From the sequence record MN850574.1: a stretch of DNA of 64,000 nt. One strand, given 5' to 3'. Below the pieces are notes generated by a model. It had not been told where the DNA came from. It saw only the letters and a program-made list of their open reading frames with translations, and ran no database searches. How positions within the stretch are numbered: the first letter of the stretch is position 1; each line of letters opens with the position of its first letter. This stretch comes from Escherichia phage kaaroe. A program made the translations under genes and the position numbers. This document shows positions 22,336 through 54,664 of this stretch, in pieces.

Positions 22336-22353
22336 AGGGGGCTTTCGCCCCCT
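22336..22353 (-). other. stable GCGAAAGC-type hairpin between genes 34 and 35
   Basis: GGGGGCGAAAGCCCCC on the minus strand; no T-run. Confidence 0.5.
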
Positions 22354-32582: not shown

Positions 32583-32851
32583 TGAAAGTCGGTATTATTC
32601 AATTATGGACGGCTACCAGTGAAAACTACGCAGTAGCCGTAGATTATTACGGTTTACAATATCTCTATGATGAAGCGAGCGCATCATGGCTTCCTGTGCA
32701 AGAAAATAGCGATATATCAAGACCTGCTACTATATTCGACCGTGGCGTTGTCTTTATCGATATTGACGAGACAGTAGCAAAACTGCGTAAGAAAGCAATC
32801 AATAAGAAAAAGGTGATGTGGGATGAAAGAATATTTGAAACTATTGCGTGA
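32582..32851 (+). CDS. hypothetical protein (89 aa)
   Basis: Internal ATG of track ORF 32555-32851; 3' end overlaps td start. Confidence 0.45.
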   Translation: MKVGIIQLWTATSENYAVAVDYYGLQYLYDEASASWLPVQENSDISRPATIFDRGVVFIDIDETVAKLRKKAINKKKVMWDERIFETIA

Positions 32852-34055
32852 TGTTCTTGATAATGGATGGCCTCGTGAAGACCGAACTGGGGTAGGTACG
32901 CTATCTAAATTCGGCGCAGAGATGCGAATTGATTTAAGCAAGGGTTTCCCATTACTGACCACTAAAAAGATGGCTACAGCCTCTGTAATTGGCGAATTGC
33001 TATGGTTTATGGAGGGATCACTTGACCGCCGTCGCTTACAGGAAATTACACGCGGTAAGTTTGACGAAGAAGCCTTCGACATTTGGCGCGGCAACTGTCT
33101 TGATATGAAAGAAAAGAATCCTTTGCGATTCAATGGTTATAATGTCGGCAATATGTATGGTATGGCATGGCGACGCAAACCGATTCATCCACACGGTGAA
33201 ATCAAAATTAAGCGCGTTAAGAGCAAATATGCACATACATTTAAGCACCCGTGGGTAGAAGACTTTACGCCAACCAATGAAACAGAAGACCGTTTATGTG
33301 CTATCTGGCGTGGTATGCGTTATGAAGAGTTTGATTCTGAATATAATCAATTCTTAGTAGCAGACCACTGGAAGACTCAATCTAATTTTGTTAATGATGC
33401 ATATTGCTTGTGGGGATTCCAGGAATGGGTAGATGATGGTTATTTCGGTTATCTGCTTGATAGTGATTATCTGGGCGGGGATATTTTAGCGCCAGATACC
33501 ACGATCTTTGCTAGTATGGACGTAGACACATCGAGCACTAAAGACGATGAAGAATATGTCTATCGACCGAAGATTTGGGAAGACCAGTTACAAAACGTGA
33601 TTGAACAAATTAAAAACAATCCAACGGATCGACGTATCATCATTGACTCATGGAACGTACAAGGAACACATAATGCTGTATTAGGTGTATGTCATCCTTT
33701 CGTGCAATTCTACGTCAATGAAGGTAAACTGTCTTGTATGTGGTTTCAGCGAAGCGTAGACAGCTTTTTAGGCTTGCCCTTTAACGTCGCCAGCTATGCG
33801 CTGTTAACTCACATCATAGCGAAAATGTGTGATCTTGAGGTAGGAGAACTGATTTTCTCTGGTGGAGATACTCACATTTACAAAAACCATTTTGATCAAG
33901 TTATGGAACAGTTAAGCCGTGTTCCGTTTGATAAACCAACGATTGAGTTGCCGGAATTTAAATCTTTAGATGAGGTATTGACAAAGACTCCGAAAGACTT
34001 TAAAATTCACAACTATCAAAGCCATCCAGCAATCACCGCTCAAATGGCAGTATAA
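32823..34055 (+). CDS. td: thymidylate synthase with a ~130-aa internal insertion; no intron
   Basis: 410 aa continuous ORF; ThyA motifs (active-site CHPFVQFYV, RSVDSFLGLPFNVASYALL, SGGDTHIY, C-terminal AV). Confidence 0.88.
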   Translation: MKEYLKLLRDVLDNGWPREDRTGVGTLSKFGAEMRIDLSKGFPLLTTKKMATASVIGELLWFMEGSLDRRRLQEITRGKFDEEAFDIWRGNCLDMKEKNPLRFNGYNVGNMYGMAWRRKPIHPHGEIKIKRVKSKYAHTFKHPWVEDFTPTNETEDRLCAIWRGMRYEEFDSEYNQFLVADHWKTQSNFVNDAYCLWGFQEWVDDGYFGYLLDSDYLGGDILAPDTTIFASMDVDTSSTKDDEEYVYRPKIWEDQLQNVIEQIKNNPTDRRIIIDSWNVQGTHNAVLGVCHPFVQFYVNEGKLSCMWFQRSVDSFLGLPFNVASYALLTHIIAKMCDLEVGELIFSGGDTHIYKNHFDQVMEQLSRVPFDKPTIELPEFKSLDEVLTKTPKDFKIHNYQSHPAITAQMAV

Positions 34056-34060
34056 ACAAA

Positions 34061-34076
34061 GGGGGCGAAAGCCCCC
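34061..34076 (+). other. stable GCGAAAGC-type hairpin between td and nrdA
   Basis: GGGGGC-GAAA-GCCCCC; no T-run. Confidence 0.5.
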
Positions 34077-34123
34077 AATATGGAGGATAAACTTGTTCCT
34101 GCTAAAATATGAAGTGAGGTAAT

Positions 34124-36367: not shown

Positions 36368-36375
36368 AATAAGTG

Positions 36376-36404
36376 TTGACGCGGGGAGAAATCCCCGCTA
36401 TAAT
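36376..36404 (+). promoter_or_regulatory. PeSL-like early promoter cassette
   Basis: TTGACG, CGGGGA-GAAA-TCCCCG hairpin in spacer, TATAAT. Confidence 0.55.
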
Positions 36405-43929: not shown

Positions 43930-44236
43930 ACAAGTTGATAATATCGCACTTCGTGAAGCACTAAAGAAAATGTTTTCGGTCGGTACTCACTCTTTGCAGT
44001 TTACTAAGAAAGATGGTACTGTCCGTGAGATGATCGCCACGCGAGATCCGGCACTGATGCCTTTCGAAACATACGAAAAGTGGTTAGTTCCTAATGTTGA
44101 AAAACCGCGTAAAGAATCAGAAACATCTTTGCCAGTATATGAAATTGCAGTTGAAGGTTTCCGTAGTTTTGGGCTTGATAGTCTGATTAATGTAGACGGG
44201 CTGACTCCAGCGCAGATCGTCGAAATTTATAAATAA
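43922..44236 (+). CDS. hypothetical protein (104 aa)
   Basis: Internal ATG of track ORF; overlaps cd stop. Confidence 0.5.
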   Translation: MTEQVDNIALREALKKMFSVGTHSLQFTKKDGTVREMIATRDPALMPFETYEKWLVPNVEKPRKESETSLPVYEIAVEGFRSFGLDSLINVDGLTPAQIVEIYK

Positions 44237-44277
44237 TTCATCATTAAACTGTATTGATTTGAAGAGGTAATAAAATT

Positions 44278-44601
44278 ATGACCGTTAAAACTCCTAAAGC
44301 ACTTGGTGACTATGTGATCATTGAAGCTAAAGCAGAAAGCGCAGGGACAGAAGTAAAAAGCTCTATGGGGATCATTATTGAGCAAAAGCGCACTATGGGC
44401 GAGATTCCGCTGGTAGGTAAGATTATTGATATCGGTGAAACGGTAGATAAAGAATTGCTGGGTAAAACTGTTTTACTGCCACATGGCAAGATGAATAAAG
44501 TTCCTCATCCAGACGTTATTAACGGCGTTAAGAAGGAAGAAGAGATCGACCTGAAATGGACTGTAACGCACAAACAGAATATTGTGGTAGTTTACGGTTA
44601 A
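44278..44601 (+). CDS. 31: GroES-like co-chaperonin for capsid assembly
   Basis: 107 aa; GroES-like (LGDYVIIEA..., mobile-loop-like region); between cd and ligase as in T4. Confidence 0.75.
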   Translation: MTVKTPKALGDYVIIEAKAESAGTEVKSSMGIIIEQKRTMGEIPLVGKIIDIGETVDKELLGKTVLLPHGKMNKVPHPDVINGVKKEEEIDLKWTVTHKQNIVVVYG

Positions 44602-44612
44602 TGATTTTAAAC

Positions 44613-44639
44613 GGCGGGAAATAATCCCGCCTATATTTT
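44613..44639 (+). terminator. intrinsic terminator
   Basis: GGCGGGA / TCCCGCC stem followed by TATATTTT. Confidence 0.6.
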
Positions 44640-44684
44640 GACTATATGATTTTGTAAGTTATTGATTATTAAGGAAATTTTATT

Positions 44685-44849
44685 ATGAAAACTATGAATG
44701 TAAACATCCACGAAATCCATACCGAAGTATTCACCGAAGAAGACCAGTTTGGTGTATGGGTAAACCCTCATTCGATTACTATCGATATTCCTAATGACGA
44801 TTATGATCCGTTCTCTCTGATTAGCGAGATTAGTTTCAATGACTTCTGA
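44685..44849 (+). CDS. hypothetical small acidic protein (54 aa)
   Basis: MKTMNVNIHEIHTEVFTEEDQF...; AAGGAAA SD; 3' end overlaps next start. Confidence 0.4.
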   Translation: MKTMNVNIHEIHTEVFTEEDQFGVWVNPHSITIDIPNDDYDPFSLISEISFNDF

Positions 44850-45318
44850 AATTGATATCTATGCGGGTGGACCTTATCCATCGGGTGAATTGAGTAATTT
44901 CAATAAAAGACCATTCCGTCTATTTGGTTGCGATATTAACAGCACAGAAGGATTTTTACAGGGGCTAAGATTTAAGAACCCTCAGAGACAAAGAGAAATC
45001 TTTTTGATGCACGGTGGCAAAGCAAAAAGAACCGGAAGAACTGAAAAGATTGAGAATCACATGTTATATTTTCAGGGTCGCCAGATTCATCGAATGAGTG
45101 AGCATTATTACAGACTGGTACATCTGGCATTTGTTACGATGGCACGGAATAACCCAGAATTTTGTAAAGCATTACTCTCTACCGGAAATAAGAAATTACG
45201 TCATAGCATAGGTGGAACTGATCCGTTAAAGACTATATTGACTGAATCGGAATTTTGTAGTATCCTCAATGATATTCGTGAACGTTTAACAAAACGAGGT
45301 GAAAATGTCAATTCTTAA
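44839..45318 (+). CDS. NADAR-like (YbiA/DUF1768 family) protein
   Basis: 159 aa; SNF...PF...G....S.E...Q..RF..........AK.TGR pattern. Confidence 0.55.
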   Translation: MTSEIDIYAGGPYPSGELSNFNKRPFRLFGCDINSTEGFLQGLRFKNPQRQREIFLMHGGKAKRTGRTEKIENHMLYFQGRQIHRMSEHYYRLVHLAFVTMARNNPEFCKALLSTGNKKLRHSIGGTDPLKTILTESEFCSILNDIRERLTKRGENVNS

Positions 45319-46801
45319 TATCATTAATCAGCTTGCAGCAACAGACAAAACATCGCTGAAAGAAAAGATTCTGAAAGAATCCGCGAGCAATGAAACGCTG
45401 AAAGAATGCTTTTATCTGGCATATTGCAAACAGGTTACGTTTGGCGTAAAGAAATACGATAAACCGTCTCGCTATTCGTCTGTATTGTCTTTATCCGGTG
45501 CATTACAGGTCTTTAAAAATAAACTTGCCACGCGTCAAGTAACTGGTAATGCAGCATTACAGCTAGTTACCGATACTCTGACTTGCTTGTCAGAAAATGA
45601 TGCTAAAGTTGCAATGATGGTCCTGAATCGTGATCTGGAATGTGGTTGTTCCGCTACTACTGCAAACAAGGTATGGAAGAAACTGATCCCTCAGCAACCG
45701 TGCCACCTTGCATCGTCATGTTCTGATAAGACTATTGCTAATATCAAGTATCCGGCGTATGCACAACTTAAAAGCGATGGCGCTCGTGGTATGGCTGATA
45801 TTGACGGGGAAACATTAGCAATCTATACCCGCTCAGGTAATACCTATCAAGGGCTTGATGATTTGTTTGCGGTTTTAGAGCGTCTACGAGGCCGTGGAAT
45901 TGTTCTAGATGGCGAATTGGTATATATGCCTACCCTTTCGCAAACACCAGCGCAGAACTTCGTTGAAAGCGTTTATGATGGTACTCTGTCATGGATATTT
46001 GAAGAAGAGGAAATGCCATTAACGCCAGTAGCGGAAGCAGTGAAAGAATCCGTTGTTGCAGATCGTCAGACCGGAAATGGTATCCTCAACAAATCACTTA
46101 AAGGAACTATTCCAAAAGAAGAAGCCCAATGTATTGTTTACACTGTCTGGGATGTTATCGACCGTGATGTGTATTACGGAAACGAGAAAGCAACGAAGCA
46201 ATATAAAGATCGATTCGAAGAACTAAAACAGATTGTTGAAGAACTTAACGATCCTCGTGTTCAGATCATCGAAAACACTGTAGTTAACAATATCGATGAA
46301 GCTCGCGAAGTATATCATCGTTATGTCAACATGGGCTTAGAAGGTATTATCCTTAAAAATTTACATGGTGTATTTGAAGATCGCCGTAGTAAAGATCAGG
46401 TTAAATTTAAAGAAGTGATTGACTTCGACGCGGAAATTGTTGATGTATATCCGCATAGTAAAGACCCCAATAAGGTAGGCGGTTTTACTGTCCGTAGTGC
46501 GTGCGGACGAATGATGACTAACACCGGATCGGGATTAACCGACACTACAACCGAAAAAGGTGATGATGGTATCGAACGTGTAATTCCGTTCGATCGTCGA
46601 AATGAACTCGACCGAGAAATGTTATGGGCTGACCGTCATAACCTGATTGGAAAAGTCATTGAGATGACATGCAACGGGTATATCCGCAGCAAATCACGTA
46701 AAGAAGATGAACCGGAGTTCTCTTTATTTCTCCCAATCATCAAACGTATTCGCTACGACAAGACCACTGCAAATACAGTAAAAGAGGTATTCGATGTGTG
46801 A
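45305..46801 (+). CDS. 30: ATP-dependent DNA ligase
   Basis: ATG after GAGGTG SD; motif I KSDGAR; strong similarity to T4 ligase (LTGNAA, GLEGIILKN, KFKEVIDFD, DPNKVGGF). Confidence 0.92.
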   Translation: MSILNIINQLAATDKTSLKEKILKESASNETLKECFYLAYCKQVTFGVKKYDKPSRYSSVLSLSGALQVFKNKLATRQVTGNAALQLVTDTLTCLSENDAKVAMMVLNRDLECGCSATTANKVWKKLIPQQPCHLASSCSDKTIANIKYPAYAQLKSDGARGMADIDGETLAIYTRSGNTYQGLDDLFAVLERLRGRGIVLDGELVYMPTLSQTPAQNFVESVYDGTLSWIFEEEEMPLTPVAEAVKESVVADRQTGNGILNKSLKGTIPKEEAQCIVYTVWDVIDRDVYYGNEKATKQYKDRFEELKQIVEELNDPRVQIIENTVVNNIDEAREVYHRYVNMGLEGIILKNLHGVFEDRRSKDQVKFKEVIDFDAEIVDVYPHSKDPNKVGGFTVRSACGRMMTNTGSGLTDTTTEKGDDGIERVIPFDRRNELDREMLWADRHNLIGKVIEMTCNGYIRSKSRKEDEPEFSLFLPIIKRIRYDKTTANTVKEVFDV

Positions 46802-47270
46802 TAATGAAGGGGCGAAAGCCCCTAAACCTAAAAAATTGTCAAAGAAAGAGCAACGCCAGATCCTGAAAATGAAATATGGTGGACGTTGTGCCTATTGTGG
46901 CGAGGAACTAGGGGATCGCTGGCACGCGGACCACATCAAACCAGTATTGCGACGCTCAAAGGTAGTCTATGATGAAAATGGACGAATTGCCCGTAATGAT
47001 GATGGATCATGGAAATATAAGGTTGTAGGAATGCATAAACCGGAGCATGATATACTTGATAACATGAATCCGGCGTGTGTGCAATGCAATCTTTATAAAA
47101 GCTGTATGGGCTTAGAATACTGGCGTAAGTGTATACGCGAGAACTTCCAGAAGTACATTCAGCGCAATATGGGATTGCGAGCGGCTAAACGCTTTGGCTT
47201 GCTGTCAATCCACGACCAGCCAGTAGAATTTTATTTCGAAAAGTACGATCGCGAGCATCAAGAAAAATAA
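46794..47270 (+). CDS. HNH endonuclease
   Basis: 158 aa; CAYCG...HADHIKP...N...CVQCN; start overlaps ligase stop. Confidence 0.75.
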   Translation: MCDNEGAKAPKPKKLSKKEQRQILKMKYGGRCAYCGEELGDRWHADHIKPVLRRSKVVYDENGRIARNDDGSWKYKVVGMHKPEHDILDNMNPACVQCNLYKSCMGLEYWRKCIRENFQKYIQRNMGLRAAKRFGLLSIHDQPVEFYFEKYDREHQEK

Positions 47271-47283
47271 TTCAAAAAGTTGT

Positions 47284-47312
47284 TGACAGGGGATCGGTGA
47301 TCCCCTATACTA
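47284..47312 (+). promoter_or_regulatory. PeSL-like early promoter cassette
   Basis: TTGACA, GGGGATCGGTGATCCCC hairpin in spacer, TATACT; conserved leader. Confidence 0.6.
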
Positions 47313-47356
47313 CACACATCAAAACGAAACACACTTTCTTAAACGGAGAATCAAAA

Positions 47357-47668
47357 ATGAAATACATCGTAACGCTGCCAATGATTGACTTCGACGGAAC
47401 CATGAACACCCAGAAGACCATGAGCGCGGAGAACCAACTGAAAAACGCTACCCTGATTCGTGAAGTTCGCAAGGCACTGGCAAAAGAATTTAACACCAAA
47501 ATTCATTCTGTAACTGGCGAACGTTTCGCGGATCATCTTGATATCAACATCAAACCAGTGCGCAACGGTGTTATCTCTGTAACAACCAGCCGCCCACATG
47601 CTGACGCTGATAATCTGACCGCTCGCGCAGAAGATGTAATTATGACCGTTATCATGGAAAAACTTTAA
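47357..47668 (+). CDS. hypothetical protein (103 aa); paralog of 50675-50962
   Basis: ATG after GGAGAATCAAAA; shared VRKALAKEFN motif. Confidence 0.5.
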   Translation: MKYIVTLPMIDFDGTMNTQKTMSAENQLKNATLIREVRKALAKEFNTKIHSVTGERFADHLDINIKPVRNGVISVTTSRPHADADNLTARAEDVIMTVIMEKL

Positions 47669-47676
47669 AAAAGTTG

Positions 47677-47705
47677 TTGACAGGGGATCACCGATCCCCT
47701 ATACT
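47677..47705 (+). promoter_or_regulatory. PeSL-like early promoter cassette (hairpin in flipped orientation)
   Basis: TTGACA, GGGGATCACCGATCCCC, TATACT; conserved leader. Confidence 0.6.
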
Positions 47706-47739
47706 ACACACATACCGAAACGAACTAGGAGAATCAATT

Positions 47740-47919
47740 ATGAACTTCAACGAAATCATCGCTAAAATCCGCTACAACGAAGAAACCATTGAACTGATGC
47801 AAAACAATATCACCAATGGCTATATGATTGCAGCGTCACAAGAAATCATTGATTTGACGGTAGCAGAAAATGCTCAGTTGAAACATCAACTTTCAACGGC
47901 TGGCGTGATTGTTATGTAA
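47740..47919 (+). CDS. hypothetical protein (59 aa)
   Basis: ATG after AGGAGAATCAA. Confidence 0.5.
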   Translation: MNFNEIIAKIRYNEETIELMQNNITNGYMIAASQEIIDLTVAENAQLKHQLSTAGVIVM

Positions 47920-47936
47920 TAAAGAGAGGTGACTAA

Positions 47937-48239
47937 ATGGCAAAAGTTCAGGTAGGTGAGGTCTTCAAAATGGAAGACCACACCGTGGAAGAGATGAAAG
48001 GCGCAGTATTGAAAGTAATTAATTCAATGTGGCGTAGTGTGCTTTACATCAACTTTATCGACGGTGATGTGTGGTGGGCTAGCGATAGCGATAAATGGGA
48101 TATCAAGTTCTACAAAGGTCATACTCACTGGTTAGGATCAGAGGATGTTGTAGAAGTTCTTGCGGTTGATGTTATGCCAGGAGAGATCGAGAATCTTAGC
48201 GGAACAGCAAAAGAAGCATTGACACGCCATTTTGCGTAA
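47937..48239 (+). CDS. hypothetical protein (100 aa), HxHW-family paralog
   Basis: ORF track; GHTHWLGSEDVVEVLAVDV. Confidence 0.5.
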   Translation: MAKVQVGEVFKMEDHTVEEMKGAVLKVINSMWRSVLYINFIDGDVWWASDSDKWDIKFYKGHTHWLGSEDVVEVLAVDVMPGEIENLSGTAKEALTRHFA

Positions 48240-48295
48240 TGTAGTATAACAATAATCGGGAGGGTAATACTCTCCCACAAATTGAGGATAATATT

Positions 48296-48487
48296 ATGTG
48301 TGGTCTTAAAATGGTTGCTGAATATAAGCGAACTGGTAATGTTATGATGTATCGACGCAATACCAACGAAGAATGGAAACCTTCAAACCGCATTAAATCC
48401 ATCCAGACGTTTATGAATAACATAAAAGAAAACCTTTTCGTTAAGCGTGCTGGTGTTGGACATTGGGAAGTTTACGAAGCTGTATAA
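48296..48487 (+). CDS. hypothetical basic protein (63 aa)
   Basis: ORF track; GAGGATAATATTATG. Confidence 0.5.
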   Translation: MCGLKMVAEYKRTGNVMMYRRNTNEEWKPSNRIKSIQTFMNNIKENLFVKRAGVGHWEVYEAV

Positions 48488-48500
48488 TTTTGAGGAAAAT

Positions 48501-48797
48501 ACTATGGAACATACTAATTTGTTTGTAGCCGAACCTTTCGTTGAAGGCAATAAAAATCTGGCTAATACCGTTATTCTTTATGAAGATTGGATCTTTTACA
48601 TCGACGAGCATTTAGATGTATTTTGTCGCACAGATAAAAGTGACCAATTTCCAATTGAAAAAAATCGAACATCAAATCATTGGTACGGCGGGAATGACGA
48701 AACCGACCTAGCTATTGTTCTAGAATCAGGCGTAGAATCTGAACATGCCAATGAAGTGGCAGACAAATTTATGAAATACGCATATAAAGCATTATAA
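48501..48797 (+). CDS. hypothetical acidic protein (98 aa)
   Basis: Internal ATG of track ORF after GAGGAAAA SD. Confidence 0.5.
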   Translation, partial: TMEHTNLFVAEPFVEGNKNLANTVILYEDWIFYIDEHLDVFCRTDKSDQFPIEKNRTSNHWYGGNDETDLAIVLESGVESEHANEVADKFMKYAYKAL

Positions 48798-48802
48798 AGT
48801 TG

Positions 48803-48831
48803 TTGACAGGGGATCGGTGATCCCCTATAAT
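48803..48831 (+). promoter_or_regulatory. PeSL-like early promoter cassette
   Basis: TTGACA, GGGGATCGGTGATCCCC, TATAAT; conserved leader. Confidence 0.6.
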
Positions 48832-48863
48832 GCACACATACCAACGAGATAGGAGAATCAAAA

Positions 48864-49031
48864 ATGTTCCAGACTAAAGCAGAATGCGAAGCATACATTG
48901 TAGCAAACCACGGTGAAGACTACCTGAAATTCGATATCGTAGTAGCACAGAAGATCACCGGAATGGTTGCAAAATATCTGGGTGTTAAAGAAGGTTACTA
49001 TCCGAGCAACGCACCGGAAATCAACAAATAA
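48864..49031 (+). CDS. hypothetical protein (55 aa); near-identical copy at 52144-52311
   Basis: MFQTKAECEAYIVANHGEDYLKFDIVVAQK...; below track cutoff. Confidence 0.5.
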   Translation: MFQTKAECEAYIVANHGEDYLKFDIVVAQKITGMVAKYLGVKEGYYPSNAPEINK

Positions 49032-50966: not shown

Positions 50967-50987
50967 CGGGGCGTTAAGCCCCCTTTT
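50967..50987 (+). terminator. intrinsic terminator
   Basis: GGGGC-GTTAA-GCCCC followed by CTTTTC. Confidence 0.5.
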
Positions 50988-51011: not shown

Positions 51012-51320
51012 ATGAAAGATAATATCTTTGAATTTACCCGCGAAAATCTCCCAATGTTCCGAAAGTCTCTGCTTAAACTAGAGAACAGCAATTACGATGT
51101 ATATTTTTACATCACCGAAGATCTAGAGATCCTTTACGCTGATTACCCAGGTCCGATCCGTACCTTCGAAGAAGCATCGCAGTATAAAAATGTTCACGGT
51201 CATGAGCACTGGTTACGAGAAAACCCAGGTCGCAAGAAAGCACGCGTTAAAGTGATTGCGATTGACGTAACACCAGCATACGCCGACCGGATTGCACTGA
51301 ATGATTATTTGTCTAAATGA
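51012..51320 (+). CDS. hypothetical protein (102 aa), HxHW-family paralog
   Basis: ATG after GAGGATAATACT; HGHEHWLRENPGRKKARVKVIAIDV. Confidence 0.5.
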   Translation: MKDNIFEFTRENLPMFRKSLLKLENSNYDVYFYITEDLEILYADYPGPIRTFEEASQYKNVHGHEHWLRENPGRKKARVKVIAIDVTPAYADRIALNDYLSK

Positions 51321-52067: not shown

Positions 52068-52081
52068 TTTTAAAAAAGTTG

Positions 52082-52110
52082 TTGACGGGGATCGGGAGAT
52101 CCCCTATAAT
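52082..52110 (+). promoter_or_regulatory. PeSL-like early promoter cassette
   Basis: TTGACG, GGGGATCGGGAGATCCCC, TATAAT; conserved leader. Confidence 0.6.
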
Positions 52111-54635: not shown

Positions 54636-54664
54636 TTGACAGGGGATCATCGATCCCCTATAAT
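54636..54664 (+). promoter_or_regulatory. PeSL-like early promoter cassette
   Basis: TTGACA, GGGGATCATCGATCCCC, TATAAT; conserved leader. Confidence 0.6.

Follow-up and report, generated by a model that had tools for sequence, protein, structure and literature searches.

A nuclease gene located behind a core DNA-metabolism gene, with a stable hairpin near its translation start, has been described for I-TevI, I-TevII, I-TevIII, segB and Aeh1 mobE; these hairpins sequester the Shine-Dalgarno (SD) sequence or the AUG, and a late promoter bypasses them (PMC2988022). In the RB49/phi1 phage group, GC-rich stem-loops caused a strong drop in downstream lacZ expression in reporters (PMC2839356). Hairpins are also present close to the ligase gene in other T4-type phages, lying 4-8 nt after ligase in Aeromonas T4-like phages and, in T4, immediately behind the small ORF downstream of ligase (UUCG hairpin AGGCC-UUCG-GGCCU). 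The locus described here, in which an HNH endonuclease gene follows DNA ligase, resembles the I-TevI group in its gene order and in the presence of a stable hairpin near the start of the nuclease gene, whereas its hairpin, at position 46808, leaves both the SD and the AUG free.

The ligase-HNH unit

Escherichia phage kaaroe (MN850574.1) has a genome of the Krischvirus type (RB49-like, T4-like coliphage). A stretch of 64,000 nucleotides, referred to below as the window, was analyzed, and all positions are those of the window. The features of the ligase-HNH unit are the following.

45299..46801, + strand: ATP-dependent DNA ligase (gp30 homologue), ORF matching Pfam DNA_ligase_A_M PF01068 at 2.8e-22
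46784..46788, + strand: Shine-Dalgarno GAGGU of the HNH ORF, located in the final codons of ligase and separated from the ATG by a 6-nt spacer
46794..47270, + strand: HNH endonuclease ORF, 158 aa, last gene of the 30.3-ligase-HNH unit
46799..46807, + strand: ligase stop codons TGA TAA TGA, three consecutive in frame, read from the sequence
47283..47311, + strand: PeSL element (TTGACA, stem-loop 47288-47306, TATACT), found by the terminator and hairpin scans

The gene upstream is annotated as DNA ligase or T4-like gp30 in PQ306574.1 and in the RefSeq Krischvirus records, its start being placed at 45305 in the public annotation as against 45299 for the ORF. The original prediction that the HNH ORF begins 8 nt ahead of the ligase stop was borne out by the ORF coordinates, the overlap (46794-46801) being read in ATGTGTGA. 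The SD of the HNH ORF is recorded as a ribosome_binding_site feature in the Ec_Makalu records. The PeSL element marks the end of the ligase-HNH unit and the start of the next early unit, and is annotated as a promoter in GEC-3S; further true PeSLs were found in the window at 47677 and 48803. A ligase-HNH frameshift fusion or a gene-60-like bypass was considered and rejected: there is no slippery heptamer, the spacing from SD to site is unlike that of prfB, tRNA-Val is unable to re-pair in the +1 frame, and the sole downstream GUC lands outside the HNH frame.

All of the HNH motifs named in the original prediction were found in the product (C32xxC35, H44-A-D-H47, N90 and C95xxC98-N99), and C32, C35, H44, D46, H47, N90, C95, C98 and N99 were invariant in a 25-sequence family alignment. 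These include the catalytic His, the conserved Asn and the two CxxC pairs that bind zinc. The protein matched the profile of the beta-beta-alpha-Me nucleases, Pfam HNH PF01844, with a score of 27 bits (cut-off 21.4) and the phrog_2118 'HNH endonuclease' profile at 7e-55. As to the beta-beta-alpha fold, its AlphaFold model had a mean pLDDT of 90.8; the best PDB matches of the model were HNH domains (Cas9 HNH and Gme HNH, 4H9D), albeit weak ones with E-values of 0.02-0.1, and the profile comparison with 4H9D gave 6.8e-4. Based on sequence, the ORF at 46794-47270 is a real HNH-family nuclease gene with predicted activity. For residues 1-10 the mean pLDDT was only 57, and secondary structure was absent before residue 18 in the model. 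Since the matches to family homologues begin at query residue 13-14, the N-terminal tail is regarded as an add-on.

The HNH gene, which RefSeq annotates as 'HNH endonuclease', follows ligase in 58 of 58 public Krischvirus records and also in L009/L010, a metagenomic relative with roughly 70% identity which has ligase and then HNH but lacks the hairpin. The presence/absence comparison at the 3' end of ligase, which had been proposed as a check, therefore gave no genus-level polymorphism. The sporadic presence among close relatives that marks free-standing homing endonuclease genes of the mob/seg type was not seen, the gene being in all 58 records and in L009/L010. Universal conservation of the gene at this position, together with lack of a hairpin effect on expression, had been named as an outcome that would speak against the original prediction; the conservation holds within Krischvirus, while at longer range the HNH gene is absent behind ligase in T4 and the Aeromonas phages and is located elsewhere in Morganella Mm5. 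Between the window and L009/L010 the HNH gene has diverged to the same extent as ligase: against the L009 homologue its dN is 0.23, equal to the ligase dN, and as synonymous sites were saturated only dN could be used. The gene is under purifying selection. Searches for further intermediate relatives returned only two Krischvirus contigs from IMG/VR and, from the metagenomes, a single match to a frameshift-ridden Krischvirus contig. P0004 and P0005 appear chimeric.

The hairpin, its sister copies and its variants

The hairpin close to the HNH start and its two sister copies in the window are as follows.

46808..46823, + strand: hairpin with a C(GAAA)G tetraloop on a 6-bp stem; folding energy -12.6 kcal/mol, equalled by 0 of 200 shuffles
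34061..34076, + strand: sister hairpin GGGGGC-GAAA-GCCCCC, 5 nt past the td stop codon, with nrdA downstream
22336..22353, - strand: sister hairpin AGGGGGC-GAAA-GCCCCCT, 4 nt past the gp34 stop codon, with gp35 downstream

The predicted mini-hairpin within HNH codons 5-10 (E-G-A-K-A-P) was confirmed as AGGGGC-GAAA-GCCCCT. Its core, GGGGCGAAAGCCCC, occupies 46809-46822, and an A-U closing pair extends the span to 46808-46823; relative to the HNH start the hairpin covers +15 to +30. The exact 14-mer occurs three times in the window (22338-22351, 34062-34075 and 46809-46822), compared with 0.00 copies expected from 100 shuffles. The copies originally placed at 22336 and 34061, which are the starts of the extended stems, both exist as post-stop elements; the strand of the former had to be corrected, since it is on the minus strand, in the sense of gp34/gp35. 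This gp34/gp35-side hairpin is annotated 'terminator' in MK327941.1, and the 32 nt comprising the td end and its hairpin recur with 100% identity in T4-like phages belonging to other genera. All three copies start 4-6 nt past the stop codon of the upstream gene and carry GAAA on the sense strand. No Rfam family match was obtained for the hairpin, the search of region 44000-49000 at E <=1 giving one chance match only. An apparent second case of a hairpin within an ORF, at 50968-50982, proved to be an artefact, as the TTG ORF had been drawn too long; its real start, which has an SD, is at 51013.

Of the 34 hairpins in the window with dG <= -9, about 26 lie 0-26 nt past a stop codon. When the GC-rich GNRA/UUCG hairpins of the window and of 50 kb of GEC-3S were examined, the stable loop was on the sense strand in ten cases out of ten, one of them in an oppositely transcribed late region, which points to a role at the RNA level. 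The core GCGAAAGC exactly matches the 'mini-hairpin DNA' motif, which has extraordinary stability as single-stranded DNA, withstands the 3' exonuclease of T4 polymerase and excludes SSB (PMC13037366), and single-stranded DNA is abundant in T4-type replication; the motif might on these grounds serve replication or recombination, or be a nuclease recognition or immunity site. The constant sense orientation of GAAA, seen in three of three copies here as well as in the wider set of ten, and the placing of the copies by stop codons and not by any replication feature, make such a role highly improbable.

The 60-nt junction was 100% identical in 53 of the 58 records, including isolates which were collected over two decades on several continents. 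Four records (three distinct phages) each have a single change in the hairpin that is uncompensated: G46812T in KFS-EC (dG -5.4), C46819A in Cognac (dG -6.2) and a loop change of G to A in E26 (dG -11.8). Only one change was seen in the 44 flanking nt, and the hairpin is not visibly more conserved than its flanks. Since two of these changes are stem-breaking and uncompensated, and the phages that carry them are viable, the hairpin is dispensable for viability.

Comparison with L009/L010 identified one further feature.

46800..46823, + strand: 24-nt segment GATAATGAAGGGGCGAAAGCCCCT (codons 3-10, DNEGAKAP) without a counterpart in the L009 HNH gene

At the L009/L010 junction the ligase stop and the HNH start share a TAATG, with a terminator behind HNH; no replacement structure was found at that junction (MFE -7.2, z +1.2). 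The HNH N-terminus is MCKPKK (MCKPKKLTKK) in L009 as compared with MC-DNEGAKAP-KPKK here. Protein alignment gave a clean 24-nt in-frame indel after ATGTGT, while the MAFFT DNA alignment gave a net difference of 14 nt with the L009 TAATG aligned to 46802-46806. Based on the L009 protein, which begins MCKPKK and has no hairpin, the hairpin is a discrete indel, located in a disordered N-terminal tail; more distant homologues are without this tail. The polarity of this indel (insertion or deletion) is judged from one relative and the outgroup N-termini.

If it was an insertion, the 16-nt C(GAAA)G hairpin could be a portable RNA module that landed where the stop of ligase and the start of HNH overlap in this coupled pair. 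The insertion would have put the ancestral TAATG start (now 46802-46806) out of frame, and HNH would have survived by gaining a new ATG in frame, served by an SD of its own 10 nt upstream, turning a regulatory hairpin into coding sequence. Such a module might act as a dosage divider, since transcripts trimmed to the hairpin would encode ligase only, and a potentially toxic nuclease would be kept scarce with its ribosome binding site untouched. This scenario is offered tentatively and is, on balance, unlikely.

The same observations can be read as those of a relic, either the remnant of an earlier ligase terminator or a copy from elsewhere, and tolerated in a dispensable, disordered HNH tail. 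Viable phages with uncompensated stem-breaking variants, two of them non-synonymous (A7S and A9D), the absence of the hairpin from L009, and a tail that is disordered and missing from the wider family would fit this reading. The near-invariance of the 60-nt junction does not fit it, nor does the nature of the structure, which is of the most stable possible hairpin type and is identical to two clearly intergenic post-stop copies, one of them conserved across genera; a relic is accordingly considered doubtful.

Candidate roles of the hairpin

The hairpin at 46808 has a GC-rich stem and a GNRA loop, is on the sense strand and begins 6 nt past the ligase TGA. As most of the stable hairpins of the window lie 0-26 nt past stops, it is best read as a 3' boundary element of ligase. 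We assign a probability of roughly 0.5 to its being a generic post-stop GC-rich tetraloop RNA hairpin that forms the 3' boundary of the ligase message, a role suggested by its position. The "ligase 3' stability element" of the original prediction agrees with this reading in the post-stop position shared with the hairpin class, and the stabilizing function proposed there is likewise suggested by position.

As a boundary, the hairpin would be a barrier to 3'-to-5' exonucleases, a partial attenuator, or both. Decay of the 30.3-ligase-HNH transcript from its distal end, or partial termination, would then yield a stable ligase-only mRNA, and HNH mRNA would be scarcer than ligase mRNA. Full intrinsic termination is not indicated: a U-tract is absent after the stem, the next letters being AAACCUAAAAAA, and the terminator scan made no intrinsic terminator call. 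In the GEC-3S annotation other hairpins are marked as terminators and the ligase-end hairpin is not. The overlap of ligase and HNH leaves no intergenic space, so that the hairpin is carried in the extended, disordered N-terminal tail of HNH. HNH is, on this reading, translationally coupled to ligase via the overlapping stop and start, and because the hairpin lies just beyond the 30S initiation footprint (at +15) ribosomes should still be able to translate HNH, whether through its own SD and ATG or after re-initiating. Against the boundary role, with the hairpin only 6 nt past the stop a terminating ribosome must partly melt it.

The hairpin had also been proposed to restrict HNH translation. 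As a translational brake in codons 5-10 it would hinder 30S binding or early elongation and so keep the nuclease level low. RNA hairpins commonly keep the expression of T-even homing-endonuclease genes low (PMC2988022), and the hairpin lies within -4..+37, a region in which some data sets link structure to reduced expression (quoted in PMC5435973). In E. coli, however, the measured initiation footprint is 13 nt, and in vivo 6-bp hairpins at +14 or beyond gave no repression and 11-bp hairpins ceased repressing at +16, which leaves a 6-bp hairpin at +15 past the repressing range; elongation through such hairpins was also unslowed (PMC5435973). With a footprint to +13/+14, opening of the initiation region cost only about +2 kcal/mol relative to a hairpin-deleted construct. 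In vitro footprints extend to +19 (PMC5435973), and a footprint reaching +16 to +19 would add 7-13 kcal/mol to the opening cost, which places the hairpin exactly at the footprint edge. The SD (GAGG) and the ATG are outside the hairpin and the SD is not sequestered; it is in fact better than that of the hairpin-less relative, which relies on the TAATG overlap. Unlike in I-TevI, segB and mobE there is no late promoter nearby: none was found for HNH within 2.5 kb upstream on the plus strand, the only plus-strand TATAAATA of the window being at 44228. The claim of restricted translation is not supported by these data, and a translational brake is quite improbable. Alternative HNH starts were also rejected. 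TTG 46836 and ATG 46869, behind the hairpin, lack an SD, and the former is TTA in L009; ATG 46804 is not in the HNH frame and would give a 20-aa peptide.

Comparison with known systems

Homologues of the phrog_2118 HNH type (about 135 aa; temperate/sipho-type phages and prophages) share 35-50% identity with the Krischvirus protein over residues 14-150, and none of the catalytic and zinc residues varies. The Krischvirus protein differs in having a 13-residue N-terminal extension and in its gene having a fixed place after ligase, within a genome of T4 type. The neighbours of the homologues include NinB, NinG, methyltransferases, integrases and replication proteins, with no conserved neighbour among 32 to 37 homologues per side. 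An HK97 gp74-type packaging HNH, whose gene lies next to terminase or the cos end, was rejected, there being no terminase among the neighbours of the same 32 to 37 homologues per side.

The PeSL cassettes of RB49/phi1 (PMC2839356, PMC4122927) come from the same phage group and have the same style of GC-rich stem-loop. Their stem-loops lie between sigma-70 -35 and -10 hexamers, whereas the 46808 hairpin is without flanking hexamers and is not at a cassette boundary; the scan found no promoter-like site at 46790-46840, and the hairpin is therefore not a PeSL cassette.

The locus is otherwise ordinary, as the HNH gene was already annotated and occurs throughout the genus, and hairpins of this class are well known from T4-type phages. 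If the proposed boundary role is true, the locus would be a compact natural example of how a phage without intergenic space accommodates an mRNA-boundary hairpin where two genes overlap: the hairpin is encoded as part of a disordered protein tail, right at the limit of the ribosome initiation footprint. Natural test material is available in the hairpin-less relative and in the G46812T and C46819A isolates, which are the two halves of a compensatory pair. The hairpin is like the T4-type post-stop tetraloop hairpins in its GC-rich stem (6-8 bp in that class), its GNRA loop, its sense-strand orientation and its start a few nt past a stop. Those hairpins (C(UUCG)G and GNRA, some annotated as 'terminators' in Krischvirus) are usually in spacers, whereas the ligase copy is within HNH codons 5-10, a tidy gene-packing curiosity and not a new system.

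The ligase-HNH junction and the HNH protein

The ligase/HNH region showed 97.5-100% identity to 58 public Krischvirus genomes (RB49-like T4-type coliphages: RB49, Phi1, JSE, GEC-3S and others), and window positions 46300-47700 were 100% identical to PQ306574.1. Public records already name the two products "ATP-dependent DNA ligase" and "HNH endonuclease"; their gene coordinates, and hence the 8-nt overlap, match those given here. Based on ORF calls, reading of the sequence and folding, the junction consists of:

45299/45305..46801, + strand, ligase ORF
46794..47270, + strand, HNH ORF, sharing ATGTGTGA with the ligase end
46799-46807, + strand, in-frame triple stop of the ligase (TGA TAA TGA)
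46808-46823, + strand, hairpin AGGGGC-GAAA-GCCCCU, HNH codons 5-10

The anatomy described in the original prediction was right: the HNH gene starts inside the ligase end, with an 8-nt overlap. A good Shine-Dalgarno sequence (GAGGU, 6-nt spacer) lies within the final ligase codons. The predicted HNH identity was upheld by a Pfam HNH profile match above the gathering cut-off, a match to phrog_2118 (7e-55) and the invariance of the catalytic/zinc-type residues C32, C35, H44, D46, H47, N90, C95, C98 and N99 in an alignment of 25 homologues. The AlphaFold model was confident (pLDDT 90.8), and the closest solved structures were HNH domains, with weak E-values. Judged from sequence, the product is a genuine HNH protein.

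Structure, copies and class of the hairpin

The hairpin has a folding energy of -12.6 kcal/mol, and 0 of 200 shuffled sequences were as stable. Its 14-mer core was present in exactly three copies in 64 kb (0 expected), so that the copies claimed near 22336 and 34061 proved exact, the former lying on the minus strand, the sense strand at that site. In the gene pairs gp34/gp35, td/nrdA and ligase/HNH, each copy starts 4-6 nt past the stop of the first gene and lies on the transcribed strand. A census of perfect stems of -9 kcal/mol or below across the window yielded 34 hairpins, about 26 of which sit 0-26 nt downstream of a stop codon (ORFs of at least 60 aa). The hairpin at 46808 is the only strong post-stop hairpin of the window within credible coding sequence. 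A second in-ORF hairpin, at 50968, was rejected as an artefact of ORF calling.

Some census hairpins are PeSLs, the promoter/stem-loop cassettes known from RB49/phi1-type phages (PMC2839356). The repeated order is TTGACA, a GGGGATC..GATCCCC-type stem-loop in the spacer, and TATACT/TATAAT, with small ORFs flanked:

47283-47311, PeSL element closing the ligase-HNH unit
47677-47705, PeSL cassette near small ORFs that follow the HNH gene
48803-48831, PeSL cassette, likewise near these small ORFs
36373-36404, further cassette with the repeated motif
52079-52110, further cassette with the repeated motif
54641-54659, further cassette with the repeated motif

The 46808 hairpin differs from these in having no flanking promoter hexamers; the terminator/promoter scan also revealed no U-tract, and an Rfam search gave no family match. 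In 10 of 10 GC-rich GNRA/UUCG hairpins from the window and a further 50 kb of GEC-3S, the stable loop was on the sense strand, which argues for a function at the RNA level. Given these loops, it is highly improbable that the mini-hairpin motif GCGAAAGC (PMC13037366) acts as a DNA element.

A 32-nt stretch made up of the final td codons and the td copy (34044-34075, with GGGGGCGAAAGCCCC) was 100% identical in other T4-like genera, in 44 records from phages of Cronobacter, Enterobacter, Klebsiella and Citrobacter whose surrounding DNA has diverged. The hairpin sequence is thus old and conserved, at the td site at least, and strong constraint or horizontal exchange at the td 3' end is suggested. 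Between this hairpin and the nrdA start (34124) lies a 10-codon mini-ORF (34080-34112, ATGGAGGATAAACTTGTTCCTGCTAAAATATGA, MEDKLVPAKI). The thymidylate synthase ORF (32823-34055) encodes 410 aa and matches a 266-position Pfam profile end to end, indicating an internal insertion of about 120-140 aa (approximately residues 125-250) of unassigned nature.

Aeromonas T4-like phages carry a terminator hairpin 4-8 nt past the ligase stop, and T4 has a UUCG hairpin after a small ORF overlapping the ligase stop; a hairpin directly 3' of ligase is a recurrent positional feature. The proposal that the hairpin is a ligase 3' stability element therefore stands as to its post-stop position, and by position and analogy a ligase 3' element is the best-supported reading, the role being suggested by those two lines. 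We give a probability of roughly 0.5 to a role as mRNA boundary or attenuator, by which HNH would be kept below ligase.

Inheritance and natural variation

The HNH gene was found behind ligase in 58/58 Krischvirus records, so that the presence/absence polymorphism looked for in this gene does not exist within the genus. Among the Krischvirus HNH genes, synonymous differences far exceed non-synonymous ones, indicating that the protein is maintained by selection. Among 5.8 billion proteins the only intermediate relative was P0003 (70% identity), represented by two short Logan contigs, L009 and L010, in which HNH also lies directly 3' of ligase. Identity to the window (ligase 71%, HNH 69-70%) and dN (0.22 and 0.23, respectively) are nearly equal for the two genes, so the pair has been inherited jointly. 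At long range the family behaves, in its genomic contexts, like a movable accessory gene. In neither T4 nor the Aeromonas phages is ligase followed by a family member, and Morganella phage Mm5 carries one at another locus. Other homologues occur on phage/prophage contigs of ~40-60 kb; their neighbours, which include NinB, NinG, methyltransferase and replication genes, vary from case to case, and no terminase was found among them. Two entries joining an HNH half to unrelated sequence (P0004, P0005) and a Krischvirus contig with many frameshifts (L097, MAVA01000210.1) appear to stem from assembly or sequencing errors and not to be genuine variants. Window positions 1-26000 were not collinear with the best match, PQ306574.1, upstream of gp34, whose coordinates are offset by 1597 nt, reflecting an indel or mosaic difference in hyperplastic regions.

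Family members begin M-x-L-S/T-K-x-Q-R, corresponding to K13-K14-L15-S16 here. In the protein alignment MC-DNEGAKAP-KPKKLSKK of the window faces MCKPKKLTKK of L009, and the 24 nt GATAATGAAGGGGCGAAAGCCCCT (46800-46823) have no L009 counterpart. The L009 genes meet at TAATG (1-nt overlap), without stable structure at the junction (MFE -7.2, z +1.2). In the DNA alignment this TAATG matches window 46802-46806, the middle TAA of the ligase triple stop plus the next TG, now out of frame, with a net difference of 14 nt; the ATG at 46794 would then be a replacement start. Both alignments agree that the hairpin lacks a counterpart in one relative and that the frame stays open across it. Polymorphism for the hairpin does exist, on this sequence comparison, in one more distant relative. 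Disorder is predicted for the HNH tail (mean pLDDT 57 for residues 1-10, first helix from residue 18), which explains its tolerance of eight extra codons dictated by RNA structure. The L009 unit has a proper terminator after HNH: at 1216-1320, GCCGATCC..GGGGTCGGC and a T-run precede a TTGACA/TATACT early promoter without a stem-loop in the spacer, and this boundary is thus not PeSL-like.

The 60-nt junction was 100% identical in 53/58 Krischvirus records. The variants (positions 611-660 of loci L093-L096) were G46812T in KFS-EC (L093, two records of one phage; A7S, dG -5.4), C46819A in Cognac (L096; A9D, dG -6.2), the synonymous loop change G46814A in E26 (L094; GAAA to AAAA, dG -11.8) and T46836A in ELT3 (L095; L15M, TTG to ATG), by which a canonical start codon arises shortly after the hairpin. 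The substitutions in KFS-EC and Cognac strike both partners of one base pair in separate phages, each uncompensated, so the hairpin is not essential; no covariation supporting the stem was seen among the 5 variant records of 58. That it is a tolerated relic is considered unlikely.

Position of the hairpin and HNH translation

The hairpin begins at +15 (A of AUG = +1). In systematic measurements in E. coli, 6-bp hairpins repressed up to 530-fold at +4 to +10 and only 4-5-fold at +12/+13, with no significant effect from +14 on; for 11-bp hairpins repression ended at +16, and elongation was not slowed (PMC5435973). With the footprint ending at +13/+14, opening costs 8.6 kcal/mol in the wild type vs 6.6 kcal/mol in the 24-nt deletion, rising to 13.5 at +16 and 21 at +19 if the footprint is longer; shifting the hairpin 3 or 6 nt closer raises the cost to 11.9 or 20.0 kcal/mol. 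Together with the published positions, these energies put it right on the footprint's permissive edge. Initiation of HNH translation is therefore probably not much restricted. The +15 position, the free Shine-Dalgarno and AUG, and a rise in opening cost of only ~2 kcal/mol over the deletion speak against the suggestion that the hairpin may restrict HNH translation, and a translational brake is regarded as quite improbable.

In the control of I-TevI/II/III, segB and mobE (PMC2988022), the hairpins include the Shine-Dalgarno or AUG, whereas the 46808 hairpin includes neither, and, unlike in those systems, no late promoter was found near the HNH start. The present case is slightly unusual, within known kinds of element.
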